From Escherichia coli (GTDB taxonomy: Bacteria; Pseudomonadota; Gammaproteobacteria; Enterobacterales; Enterobacteriaceae), in the NCBI RefSeq assembly GCF_003334785.1, contig NZ_QOWV01000003.1: a stretch of 64,000 nt of DNA. One strand, given 5' to 3'. Both the position numbers and the translations under genes were made by a program. The stretch's first letter is position 1; each line of letters begins with the position of its first letter. The notes below the pieces were generated by a model. It saw only the letters and a program-made list of their open reading frames with translations. It was not told the origin of the DNA and did not search any database. Positions 23,433 to 54,153 of the stretch are shown here, piece after piece.

Positions 23433-23933
23433 TGCAGGAAAGCAGGCTGGAGCTACCCAGCCTGCAGTGAAATTAAACTGTCGTCGCTTTCACTCTTTCT
23501 TTATAGATGATTTTTTTGATGCCATCGTTCTACGTGAGAGATAATAAACGTTGTTAGTTCTTTTATTGTTAAGCTTATCCCAATTATCTGGAATTCCTTA
23601 TCCTGTTTTTTTGGGTGGAGTAATAATTTCTGCACATCTAACCATTATTAAATTTAATAATAAGTATCGGGTTTGTTACGATAGAATATTTCTATATCCT
23701 CAAGAATATGCTTTGCCTTATTGCCTGTGACTTTCTGAGATTCAATTATAGTATCGTTAAATTCTAATGTTAAAGAGAACTCTTTTTTCCGCTTTGTGTA
23801 AGTTTAACCTTATATTGATTACCAATATCAAATAAAAAGGTCCTGTAATGAGAATAATCACCTTTAACCTCCTCGGCAAAACAGCAAAGCGTGCAAATAT
23901 ACATAAAGTCTTTCTTACCCCTGATTTTGTTAA

Positions 23934-30595: not shown

Positions 30596-32182
30596 ATGAG
30601 TCATCGTGCACGACACCAATTACTGGCGTTGCCGGGCATTATCTTTTTAGTTCTCTTTCCCATCATTCTTTCGCTATGGATTGCCTTCCTTTGGGCAAAA
30701 TCAGAAGTGAATAATCAGCTCCGAACCTTTGCTCAACTGGCACTGGATAAATCCGAGCTGGTCATTCGCCAGGCAGATTTAGTGAGCGATGCAGCTGAAC
30801 GCTATCAGGGGCAAGTTTGCACTCCAGCCCATCAAAAGCGAATGTTGAATATTATTCGTGGCTATCTTTATATTAATGAATTGATCTATGCCCGTGATAA
30901 CCATTTTTTATGCTCATCGCTGATAGCGCCTGTAAACGGCTATACGATTGCACCGGCCGATTATAAGCGTGAACCTAACGTTTCTATCTATTATTACCGC
31001 GATACGCCTTTTTTCTCTGGCTATAAAATGACCTATATGCAGCGGGGAAATTATGTGGCGGTTATCAACCCTCTCTTCTGGAGTGAAGTGATGTCTGATG
31101 ACCCGACATTGCAATGGGGTGTGTATGATACGGTGACGAAAACCTTTTTCTCGTTAAGCAAAGAGGCCTCGGCAGCAACGTTTTCTCCGCTGATTCATTT
31201 GAAGGATTTAACCGTACAAAGAAATGGCTATTTATATGCGACAGTTTATTCGACAAAACGCCCAATTGCAGCCATTGTTGCGACTTCATATCAACGTCTT
31301 ATAACCCATTTTTATAATCATCTTATTTTTGCGTTGCCCGCCGGTATTTTGGGGAGTCTTGTTCTGCTATTACTCTGGCTACGTATTCGACAAAACTATT
31401 TATCTCCCAAACGTAAATTGCAACGCGCCCTCGAAAAACATCAACTTTGTCTTTATTACCAGCCAATAATCGATATCAAAACAGAAAAATGTATCGGCGC
31501 TGAAGCGTTGTTACGTTGGCCTGGTGAGCAGGGGCAAATAATGAATCCGGCAGAGTTTATTCCGCTGGCAGAAAAGGAGGGGATGATAGAACAGATAACT
31601 GATTATGTTATTGATAATGTCTTCCGCGATCTGGGCGATTACCTGGCAACACATGCAGATCGCTATGTTTCTATTAACCTGTCGGCCTCCGATTTTCATA
31701 CGTCACGGTTGATAGCGCGAATCAATCAGAAAACAGAGCAATACGCGGTGCGTCCGCAGCAAATTAAATTTGAAGTGACTGAGCATGCATTTCTTGATGT
31801 TGACAAAATGACGCCGATTATTCTGGCTTTCCGCCAGGCAGGTTACGAAGTGGCAATTGATGATTTTGGTATTGGCTACTCTAACTTGCATAACCTTAAA
31901 TCATTGAATGTCGATATTTTGAAAATCGACAAATCGTTTGTTGAAACGCTGACCACCCACAAAACCAGTCATTTGATTGCGGAACACATCATCGAGCTGG
32001 CGCACAGCCTGGGGTTAAAAACGATCGCTGAAGGCGTCGAAACTGAGGAGCAGGTTAACTGGCTGCGCAAACGCGGCGTGCGCTATTGCCAGGGATGGTT
32101 CTTTGCGAAGGCGATGCCGCCGCAGGTGTTTATGCAATGGATGGAGCAATTACCCGCGCGGGAGTTAACGCGCGGGCAATAA
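30596..32182 (+). CDS. pdeC: c-di-GMP phosphodiesterase with periplasmic sensor domain and EAL domain
   Basis: ORF 30587-32182; start placed at ATG 30596 ([26 protein letters not shown]...) giving 528 aa; C-terminal EAL-domain motifs ([14 protein letters not shown]). Confidence 0.9.
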
Positions 32183-32184
32183 AA

Positions 32185-32508
32185 TTACAGGCGGTGGCGA
32201 TAATCGCTGGGAGTGCGATCAAACTGCCGACGGAAAACGCGGGAGAAGGTCTGCTGCGAGACATAACCCAGGTCCATTGCGATATCAAAAATCGGACGCT
32301 CGGTGGTGCGCAACTCAACGGCGGCCAGTAACAGGCGGCGTTGGCGAATGTAATCGCCAAGCGTCTGATGCGTCACCGTGCGGAACATTCGTTGCAAGTA
32401 CCACTTTGAATAGCCTGATTTTTTTGCGACTACATCAATGTTAAGCGGCTGGTCAATATGCTCGTCAATCCATGCGATAAGATCCTGAATAATTTTCTGA
32501 TGGGACAT
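32185..32508 (-). CDS. soxS: AraC-family superoxide response transcriptional activator
   Basis: 107-aa ORF MSHQKIIQDLIAWIDEHIDQPLNIDVVAKKSGYSKWYLQRMFR... Confidence 0.95.
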   Translation of the reverse strand: MSHQKIIQDLIAWIDEHIDQPLNIDVVAKKSGYSKWYLQRMFRTVTHQTLGDYIRQRRLLLAAVELRTTERPIFDIAMDLGYVSQQTFSRVFRRQFDRTPSDYRHRL

Positions 32509-32564
32509 AAATCTGCCTCTTTTCAGTGTTCAGTTCGTTAATTCATCTGTTGGGGAGTATAATT

Positions 32565-32582
32565 CCTCAAGTTAACTTGAGG
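32565..32582. promoter_or_regulatory. SoxR operator in the soxS promoter (divergent soxS/soxR control region)
   Basis: Perfect 18-bp palindrome cctcaagttaacttgagg between soxS and soxR starts. Confidence 0.85.
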
Positions 32583-32593
32583 TAAAGCGATTT

Positions 32594-33058
32594 ATGGAAA
32601 AGAAATTACCCCGCATTAAAGCGCTGCTAACCCCCGGCGAAGTGGCGAAACGCAGCGGTGTGGCGGTATCGGCGCTGCATTTCTATGAAAGTAAAGGGTT
32701 GATTACCAGTATCCGTAACAGCGGCAATCAGCGGCGATATAAACGTGATGTGTTGCGATATGTTGCAATTATCAAAATTGCTCAGCGTATTGGCATTCCG
32801 CTGGCGACCATTGGTGAAGCGTTTGGCGTGTTGCCCGAAGGGCATACGTTAAGTGCGAAAGAGTGGAAACAGCTTTCGTCCCAATGGCGAGAAGAGTTGG
32901 ATCGGCGCATTCATACCTTAGTGGCGCTGCGTGACGAACTGGACGGATGTATTGGTTGTGGCTGCCTTTCGCGCAGTGATTGCCCGTTGCGTAACCCGGG
33001 CGACCGCTTAGGAGAAGAAGGTACCGGCGCACGCTTGCTGGAAGATGAACAAAACTAA
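32594..33058 (+). CDS. soxR: MerR-family redox-sensing regulator with 2Fe-2S cluster
   Basis: 154-aa [39 protein letters not shown]...; [12 protein letters not shown] cluster-binding motif. Confidence 0.95.
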
Positions 33059-33191
33059 AGCGCCACAAGGGCGCTTTAGTTTGTTTTCCGGTCTTTGTCT
33101 TTCTCTCTATCCCGCTGGTACACAGGAGGGTTTCCCCCGACGTCAACACACCTCATTCGAGCACGTGGTGGAGGTTCCGGTTGGTGTTGAT
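33052..33191 (-). ncRNA. ryjA: possible small RNA RyjA (placement approximate)
   Basis: Recalled from K-12 annotation as a ~140-nt sRNA antisense to the soxR 3' end; the only sequence support is the bidirectional terminator hairpin at 33056-33086. Confidence 0.3.
33056..33086. terminator. bidirectional terminator hairpin at the soxR 3' end
   Basis: ctaaagcgccacaagggcgctttagtttgtttt: stem ctaaagcgcc/ggcgctttag; T-rich tail on plus, TTTTGTT on minus. Confidence 0.7.
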
Positions 33192-33603
33192 GCTTTAATT
33201 GTATGTCACCGACGTTTCTTCGCCAGTGTAAAAGTATACTTTTTAACCGCAATATTTTTGTCATCTCAGACGATTTTTTATCGCAATCCTGAACGGTATA
33301 CGGCTCGATAACGCTGCAATCTTGCGCACCGACGATAACGTTTGCGCATCAATTGCCTGGTTTTTCATCGTCAAGACAATAAAAGAGAAAAAAGCAGCAA
33401 ACTTCGGTTGAAAAAGCCGCTATGATCGCCGGATAATCGTTTGCTTTTTTTACCACCCGTTTTGTATGCGCGGAGCTAAACGTTTGCTTTTTTGCGACGC
33501 AGCAAATTGTCGCAAACCTGGAGCAGGAAGATAACGTTTCGCTGGCAGGGGATTGTCCGCCACGCATCTTGACGAAAATTAAACTCTCAGGGGATGTTTT
33601 CTT

Positions 33604-52005: not shown

Positions 52006-54153
52006 TTACGCCAGTGCCGCTTCGCGCAGGCGAGTTTTCAACTTGTTGTACTCGTCAATCACGTACTGCTCGGCGGCGCGCTGATCGGCGATCGGCTCGA
52101 CGCGAACGGCGCAGTATTTGTACTCCGGCGTTTTCGTAATCGGGCTTAAGTTTTCAGTAACCAGCTCGTTACAGGCACCAATCCACCACTGGTAGGTCAT
52201 GTAAATCGCCCCTTTGTTCGGACGATCGCTGACCTGCGCACGGGTGATAATTTTGCCTTTACGCGAGTGCACCCAAACCAATGCCTCATCTTCAATACCC
52301 AGACGTTTGGCGTCTTCGGTATTGATTTGTGCGTAGCCAGGTTCATCAGCCAGCGCCGCCAGTGCCGCACAGTTACCGGTCATCGAACGGCAAGAGTAGT
52401 GACCAACTTCACGCACCGTTGACAGTACCATCGGGTACTCGTCGGTGAGTTTGTCGATTGGCGCTACCCAGTCGCAGGTGAAGAACTGCGCCAGACCGTT
52501 CGGGGTATCAAACTTCTCTTTAAACAGATAAGAAGTCCCCTGATCGGCATCTGAAGTATCGCGGCAAGGCCACTGAATGAAGCCCAGTTCGCCCATTTTC
52601 TCGTAAGTCGCACCGTAGAAATCCGGGCACAGATGACGCAACTCATCCCAGATCTCCTGGGTGTTGTTGTAGTGCATCGGATAACCCATACGGGTGGCGA
52701 TTTCACTGATGATTTGCCAGTCCGTTTTCAGATCCCATTTCGGTTCAACCGCCTTGAAGAAACGCTGGAAGCCACGGTCAGCCGCAGTAAACACGCCTTC
52801 ATGCTCGCCCCACGACGTTGACGGTAAAATAACATCCGCCGCCGACGCGGTTTTGGTCATAAAGATGTCCTGAACGATAACCAGTTCCAGATCTTCAAAG
52901 GCTTTACGTACTGCCGACAGCTCCGCGTCAGTTTGTAGCGGATCTTCGCCCATAATGTACGCGGCACGCACTTCGCCATGCGCTGCGCGGTGCGGCAGCT
53001 CGCTGATGCGATAGCCGGTATGCGCTGGCAGGCTTTCCACGCCCCAGGCTTTGGCGAATTTCTCGCGGTTAGCCGGATCTTTCACGTACTGGTATCCCGG
53101 ATACGTATCCGGCAGCGCGCCCATATCGCAGGCACCCTGAACGTTGTTCTGACCACGAACCGGGTTAACACCCGCATGCGGCTTACCGAGGTTACCGGTC
53201 AGCATCGCGAGGCTGGTCAGAGAACGCACGGTTTCCACGCCCTGGTAGAACTGGGTTACACCCATGCCCCACAGGATGGCGGCGCTTTTCGCCTGGGCAT
53301 ACATCCGTGCCGCCTGACGAATCTCACTGGCGCTGACGCCGGTGATATCTTCAACCGACTCCGGCGTGTAGCCTTCAACGATTTTACGATACTCTTCAAA
53401 GCCTTCTGTACGTGAAGCGACGAACGCTTTGTCGTACAGATTTTCTTCAATAATGACATGGCCCATCGCATTCAACAGCGCGATGTTCGAGCCGTTTTTC
53501 AGTGCAATGTGCATGTCAGCAATGCGCGCGGTTTCAATTTTGCGCGGATCGCAGACGATAATTTTCGCCCCGTTACGTTTAGCGTTAATTACGTGATTCG
53601 CCACGATTGGGTGGGAATCCGCCGGGTTGTACCCGAAAACGAACACTAAATCGGTATTATCAATTTCGTTAATAGCATTGCTCATTGCGCCATTACCGAC
53701 CGATTGGTGCAGACCTGCAACCGATGGGCCGTGTCAGACACGAGCGCAGCAGTCAACGTTATTGGTACCAATAACGGCGCGCGCAAATTTTTGCATTACA
53801 TAGTTGGTTTCGTTACCCGTACCACGCGAGGAGCCGGTCGTCTGGATGGCATCCGGACCGTACTTCTCTTTGATGGCGCTCAGGCGCTCGGCAACGTAAT
53901 TCAGTGCCTCATCCCAGGAAACAGGTTCGAGTTTGCCGCCACGCTGGCGACGGATCATGGGGGTTTTCAGGCGCGGGGTCAGGATCTGGGTATCGTTAAT
54001 GAAGTCCCAGCCATAATAACCCTTCAGACACAGGGTACCCTGGTTGGTTTTCCCCTGCGCTGCCTCCGCCCGGACGATTTTGCCGTTATCGACGACCAGG
54101 TTGATTTTGCAACCTGATGCGCAATAGGGGCAAACCGTGACGACTTTTTTCAT
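52006..54153 (-). CDS. fdhF: formate dehydrogenase H, selenocysteine-containing (UGA recoded as Sec at codon 140)
   Basis: ORF track splits it into 53734-54153 (MKKVVTVCPYCASGCKINLV...CCARV) and 52006-53685, in the same frame and separated only by one TGA (reverse complement of 53734-53736); reading through gives 715 aa. Confidence 0.93.
53690..53733 (-). other. SECIS stem-loop directing selenocysteine insertion at the fdhF UGA
   Basis: Minus-strand sequence directly 3' of the UGA reads cacggcccatcggttgcaggtctgcaccaatcggtcggtaatgg, matching the fdhF SECIS hairpin as I remember it (GGUUGCAGGUCUGCACC apical stem-loop). Confidence 0.8.

Follow-up and report, generated by a model that had tools for sequence, protein, structure and literature searches.

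The soxRS switch of Escherichia coli in a 64-kb stretch: a SoxR box within an over-long soxS promoter spacer, and SraL at the soxR 3' end

Introduction

How can two divergent regulatory genes be controlled from only 85 bp of DNA, and what does a perfect palindrome do in so short a space? This question is raised by the soxS/soxR locus in a 64,000-nucleotide stretch of Escherichia coli DNA (hereafter the window), where a first-pass annotation made from the sequence had pointed to a compact control region and to a bidirectional terminator at the far end of soxR. The soxRS system is among the best-studied bacterial redox sensors. In E. coli K-12, the SoxR operator in the soxS promoter reportedly goes back to Amabile-Cuevas and Demple in 1991 and to Wu and Weiss in 1991, and the primary work on this promoter and operator is said to be that of Hidalgo and Demple in 1994 and 1997, Hidalgo et al. 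in 1998 and Watanabe et al. in 2008.

Results

Identity of the genes and conservation of the locus in E. coli

The two genes that flank the control region were assigned from their products (Table 1). The 107-aa product scored 228 bits against the NCBIfam SoxS equivalog NF007584 (cut-off 174), and its scores against the Rob, RamA and MarA models stayed under the cut-offs of these models. The 154-aa product scored 248.3 bits against the SoxR equivalog TIGR01950 (cut-off 116.9) and matched PDB 2ZHG/2ZHH full length, over all 154 residues (E = 2.5e-101). It carries in its C-terminal part the CX2CXCX5C cluster-binding motif of SoxR, formed by Cys119/122/124/130, the residues that are also given as those of the cluster in PMC9909328. 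The annotated gene order is pdeC-soxS-soxR-ghxP, a 1.2-kb segment of the locus matches the DNA of E. coli K-12 MG1655 at 100% identity, and the spacing of 85 bp proposed in the first-pass annotation is the same in the ORF listing and in RefSeq.

Across complete E. coli genomes, the soxRS segment was found in 5426 of 5426 and the 85-bp region was unchanged in 5381 of 5421. Three of the segment matches are carried by plasmid-typed records. In E. coli AR Bank #0346 (NZ_CP066366.1), the match to window positions 32150-33350 is broken into two parts by an IS1B transposase and there are two soxR annotations, showing that soxR is interrupted by IS1 in this strain.

Table 1. Features of the soxS/soxR locus, in window coordinates
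Feature	Coordinates	Strand	Description and basis
soxS	32185-32508	minus	107-aa AraC/XylS-type activator of the superoxide regulon; ORF, equivalog, RefSeq annotation of identical K-12 DNA
Divergent soxS/soxR control region	32509-32593		85 bp; ORF listing, confirmed by RefSeq annotation of MG1655, whose segment is identical
Candidate soxR -35, TCGTTA	32535-32540	plus	17-bp spacer; weak match, moderate conservation; putative assignment
soxS -10, TATACT	32556-32561	minus	Custom scan; 19 bp from the -35
Candidate soxR -10, TATAAT	32558-32563	plus	Scan; its bases overlap those of the soxS -10 on the other strand; stops 1 bp short of the box
SoxR operator (SoxR box), CCTCAAGTTAACTTGAGG	32565-32582		Perfect 18-bp palindrome; 9-nt arms, 100% complementary, gapless
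soxS -35, TTTACC	32581-32586	minus	Custom scan; the palindrome begins with its last two bases
soxR	32594-33058	plus	154-aa MerR-family [2Fe-2S] redox sensor; ORF, TIGR01950, PDB 2ZHG/2ZHH
sraL (ryjA) sRNA	33051-33191	minus	Rfam RF01408; 8-nt overlap of its 3' end with the end of soxR
Hairpin common to convergent soxR and sraL	33052-33082		Arms 33052-33064 and 33070-33082; perfect 13-bp stem, 5-nt loop
Candidate sraL -10, TACAAT, then TAA	33198-33203	minus	RpoS-type feature; upstream of the sRNA, 6 nt from its 5' end; by inspection

Promoter geometry of the control region

The first-pass annotation had reported a perfect 18-bp palindrome between the genes and had supposed that it fills most of an over-long soxS spacer; promoter prediction bears this out. 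Scans were run with standard spacers of 16-18 bp and repeated with spacers of 15-21 bp. The standard scan returned no promoter in the intergenic region, as expected for an over-long spacer, and the wider one gave a promoter on each strand. On the soxS strand, the -35 and -10 elements, which are imperfect (4/6 and 5/6) and bracket the palindrome, are separated by 19 bp (TCAAGTTAACTTGAGGAAT), where 17 bp is usual. The palindrome, with fully complementary arms, covers 16 of these 19 positions and also reaches 2 bases into the soxS -35. Neither scan detected an alternative promoter with a normal spacer on the soxS strand of the intergenic region, and we infer a soxS transcription start at about 32549-32551.

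This layout, with a dyad operator lying between the -35 and the -10 and a spacer within 19-20 bp, is that of a MerR-type promoter, and a 19-bp spacer is typical of SoxR-activated promoters (PMC4411124). The same 18-mer is given as the E. coli SoxR box in that work, the SoxR site being elsewhere placed between the -10 and -35 of soxS and 3' of the soxR -10 (PMC6612552), and PsoxR/PsoxS is described as a bidirectional promoter with overlapping elements (PMC9067924). On the soxR side, the sole Shine-Dalgarno-like element (GAGG, 32579-32582, 11 nt before the ATG) is found inside the right arm of the box, so that a few bases are common to the operator, the -35 region of soxS and the ribosome-binding region of soxR. 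In 49 of the 50 measurable species among the matches listed, 11-12 nt separate the box from the soxR start.

A natural disruption of this arrangement was found in the clinical isolate E. coli E138 (NZ_AP022351.1, positions 2555-3340 of the retrieved locus L122), where an IS1X4 element is inserted in the soxS-soxR control region, at a place that corresponds to window positions 32560-32568, and has duplicated a 9-bp target, TAATTCCTC. It parts the soxS -10 from the box and the -35, while the box beside soxR is intact; soxS should be uncoupled from SoxR in this isolate, or driven by the insertion sequence.

Conservation of the box, its flanks and its spacing

We scanned one genome per species for exact matches to the 18-mer. 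Exact copies occur in more than 120 species, among Enterobacterales, Vibrio, Shewanella, Pseudomonas, alphaproteobacteria and actinomycetes. Among the matches listed, a SoxR homologue lies within 600 bp of the box in 94 of 120 loci, and 58 of these 94 also have a divergent soxS. Because the loci were picked by the exact box, conservation of the box itself is so by construction and the independent evidence is that of the flanks and of the spacing only. Among the matches listed, TTTACC and TATACT stand at exactly 19 bp from each other in 58 of the 58 species with divergent soxS/soxR, and the block formed by AGTATAATT, the box and TAAAG (32556-32587) differs by one base in one of these 58 species. 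An alignment of these loci anchored at the box shows hardly any variation in GAGTATAATT-box-TAAAG (about 32555-32587) whereas the remaining intergenic DNA drifts, and the intergenic length itself ranges from 78 to 155 bp (commonest, 86 bp, in the same listed matches). The candidate soxR -10 is kept in 57 of the 58 species listed. The cross-species comparison thus restates in compact form the grounds for the architecture: the -10, the box, the -35 and the 19-bp spacing are frozen, and the flanks drift.

The geometry is also found where soxS is missing. Among the listed loci with soxR only, the -35 reads TTGACC or TTTACC in 35 of 36, and a TAnnnT located 19 bp from TT[GT]ACC is present on the strand opposite to soxR in 30 of 36 and on the soxR strand in 0 of 36. 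Of the box copies that lack a neighbouring soxR, 23 of 26 (among the matches listed) have this geometry in one of the two orientations, as would be expected of remote SoxR targets.

Three copies (L050, positions 7386-7403; L075, 9411-9428; L118, 4853-4870) combine the exact 18-mer with symmetric AAAACC...GGTTTT flanks, which makes an extended palindrome. Two of them come from metagenome-assembled genomes (MAGs), one of Flavobacteriaceae and one of Candidatus Berkelbacteria, and the third from another locus. Neither an adjacent soxR homologue nor the -35/-10 geometry was seen at these three copies, which may be unrelated to SoxR.

The 3' end of soxR and SraL

SraL is said to have been first described in 2001. 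The first-pass annotation had proposed that the 3' end of soxR overlaps a bidirectional terminator, which might also serve an antisense sRNA. This sRNA is SraL/RyjA: RF01408 matches with 153.3 bits (threshold 39; E = 1.1e-34) over model positions 1-142 of 142, and the Rfam sraL alignment has the hairpin as its terminator helix. SraL/RyjA is already described as an Hfq-binding RNA of about 140 nt that is RpoS-dependent, expressed in stationary phase and encoded convergently beside soxR, from a promoter with RpoS-type features (PMC3753932); in Salmonella, it regulates the tig and rho mRNAs (PMC3753932, PMC6582626).

The left arm of the hairpin encloses the soxR stop codon (TAA, 33056-33058). The hairpin folds on both strands far more stably than shuffled sequences (plus, -26.1 kcal/mol, z = -6.2; minus, -22.6 kcal/mol, z = -5.3). 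A terminator scan let it pass for the minus strand only: the plus-strand tail GTTTTCCG (GTTTTCC) counts 4 T, one fewer than the rule demands. The overlap with soxR and the folding on both strands agree with a bidirectional terminator, and the scan backs the minus strand; soxR transcription most likely also ends at this hairpin.

Of 17 enterobacterial loci, 9 carry a convergent sraL next to soxR. Among the loci checked, the 8-nt overlap of sraL with the end of soxR is found in E. coli and E. albertii only, the gap elsewhere being 0-84 nt, and SoxR is 154 aa long in these two species and 151-152 aa elsewhere. As one hairpin is common to soxR and sraL, the two RNAs have at least 31 nt of perfect complementarity at their 3' ends, a stretch which in Escherichia takes in the final 8 nt of the soxR reading frame. 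Such complementarity could allow cis-antisense cross-talk between the two 3' ends, for example by RNase III processing or transcriptional interference, and could in this way link the RpoS-dependent, stationary-phase SraL to the level of SoxR. We hold this to be improbable; no report of a soxR-SraL interaction was found in the literature searched.

Other palindromes and elements in the window

Three further perfect palindromes with arms of at least 9 nt are present in the window: at 9023-9046 (AAAGCCGGATGATCATCCGGCTTT), at 23644-23661 (ATTATTAAATTTAATAAT) and, as a 20-bp palindrome, at 53757-53776 (CGTTATTGGTACCAATAACG). The last is 16 bp from a SECIS_2 selenocysteine insertion element (53687-53741, minus strand; 87 bits, full length), as found in formate dehydrogenase genes. 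REP-type repeats matching Rfam naRNA4 (RF02564) are located on the plus strand at 220-290, 4449-4519, 40429-40499, 51035-51105 and 51148-51218, and one more naRNA4 match was obtained in the E. albertii locus (L009, 9766-9836).

Alternative readings of the palindrome and of the hairpin

Could the palindrome be a chance or unrelated symmetry, such as a repeat centred on the HpaI site GTTAAC or the site of another regulator, with the real soxS promoter elsewhere in the 85 bp? Palindromes of this kind are not rare enough to dismiss this at once. Under a first-order Markov model, 0.32 perfect palindromes of this size are expected by chance per 64 kb and 28% of the simulated windows hold at least one with 9-nt arms; the window itself holds four with arms of at least 9 nt against the 0.32 expected, and 3 of the 120 exact copies among the matches listed (L050, L075 and L118) have neither promoter geometry nor an adjacent soxR. 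Palindrome length alone is therefore weak evidence, and it is position and conservation that carry the significance. The particular 18-mer, allowing up to 3 mismatches, has one copy in the window and none in 100 shuffles. Critically, the box with its -35 and -10 at 19 bp is invariant in the 58 listed species while the remaining intergenic DNA diverges, 94 of the 120 listed copies adjoin a soxR homologue, the soxS strand offers no promoter with a normal spacer, and the literature names this very 18-mer as the SoxR box (PMC4411124). A chance origin was rejected on this conservation and context, and its probability is negligible in our view. Slightly less remote, and still very improbable, is that the palindrome acts as an RNA hairpin in the soxR leader, where it would cause attenuation or occlude the GAGG, instead of or beside its role as operator. 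This GAGG is indeed the only element of its kind before the soxR ATG and belongs to the right arm, and any transcript begun upstream of the box would carry both arms. Nevertheless, the conserved soxR -10 puts the start inside the palindrome, so that the main transcript would hold the right arm only, and a perfect palindrome that has no loop makes a poor RNA hairpin. That the listed soxR-only loci keep the geometry opposite to soxR (30/36 vs 0/36) further argues for a role at the level of DNA. A hairpin as the main function was thus rejected on the placement of the soxR start, which leaves the operator as the preferred reading of the palindrome.

For the hairpin at the 3' end of soxR, the alternative is that it terminates SraL only, and that soxR reads through it or ends by Rho-dependent termination or processing. 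The simple scan, which accepts the minus strand only and finds a plus-strand tail one T short of the rule, is in line with this possibility, as is the fact that in other genera, where the hairpin lies 0-84 nt past the soxR stop, it tracks sraL and not soxR. On the other hand, the 13-bp stem folds strongly on the plus strand (see above), its 3' arm ends in UUUAGUUU and is followed by GUUUU, so that U and G make up 11 of the last 13 nt, and no other terminator-like site was found between soxR and ghxP. We consider termination of SraL alone unlikely, although it has more in its favour than either alternative for the palindrome, and keep a hairpin that serves both convergent genes as the preferred reading.

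Discussion

Altogether, these results indicate that the locus is the textbook E. coli soxRS switch, with SraL at the distal end of soxR, all of which is already known; we put the probability of this reading at about 0.97, and no observation made here speaks against it. Nothing here is new as a discovery. The value of the check is rather that a MerR-type promoter and a convergent terminator common to two genes are recognisable from raw sequence.

In the switch as it would operate here, SoxR, a homodimer of the MerR family whose subunits each carry one [2Fe-2S] cluster, would occupy the 18-bp palindrome in both redox states. Because the 19-bp spacer is 2 bp too long for sigma-70 to engage both elements, basal transcription of soxS should be low. 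When the cluster undergoes one-electron oxidation or is nitrosylated, the conformation of SoxR would change and the operator would be kinked and untwisted, which would realign the -35 and -10 elements and activate soxS; SoxS would then turn on the regulon. Since the bound box lies directly 3' of the soxR -10, SoxR would also repress its own gene from that single site. This scheme follows what is published: SoxR binds the operator in both redox states, soxS is activated by the oxidised form only, and both forms repress soxR (PMC6612552). The DNA distortion of the MerR family, which the first-pass annotation had suggested from the position of the palindrome, is the accepted mechanism for SoxR, and the structure of oxidised SoxR on DNA (2ZHG) shows a kinked and untwisted operator (PMC9909328). 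SoxR binding, redox control, DNA distortion and autorepression, like the expression and targets of SraL, are thus taken from the literature, and the identities of the genes and of the sRNA, the anatomy of the -10, box and -35 and its invariance are computed here.

The locus compares with known systems at several levels. It is the same locus as soxRS of E. coli K-12, with the same 18-mer box, 19-bp spacer, overlapping divergent promoters and 85-bp spacing, and no difference was seen between the two. The sRNA likewise does not differ from SraL/RyjA of RF01408: the match is full length, the gene is convergent with soxR and the terminator is at the soxR 3' end (PMC3753932). Outside the enteric bacteria, the SoxR regulons of Pseudomonas aeruginosa, Streptomyces coelicolor and Stenotrophomonas maltophilia (mfsA) use the same or a near-identical box within TT[GT]ACC and TAnnnT at 19 bp (PMC4411124, PMC4146615); these regulons have no soxS, and SoxR there controls transporters and oxidoreductases directly (PMC4146615). 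More broadly, MerR at merT of Tn501, CueR at copA and ZntR at zntA likewise act as dimers on a dyad in a 19-20 bp spacer, with a divergent regulator gene and with repression and activation exerted from one site (PMC9909328). Unlike these metal-responsive regulators, SoxR takes its signal from its [2Fe-2S] cluster's redox state and not from metal binding, and soxS, a second regulator, is the one major target under its direct control.
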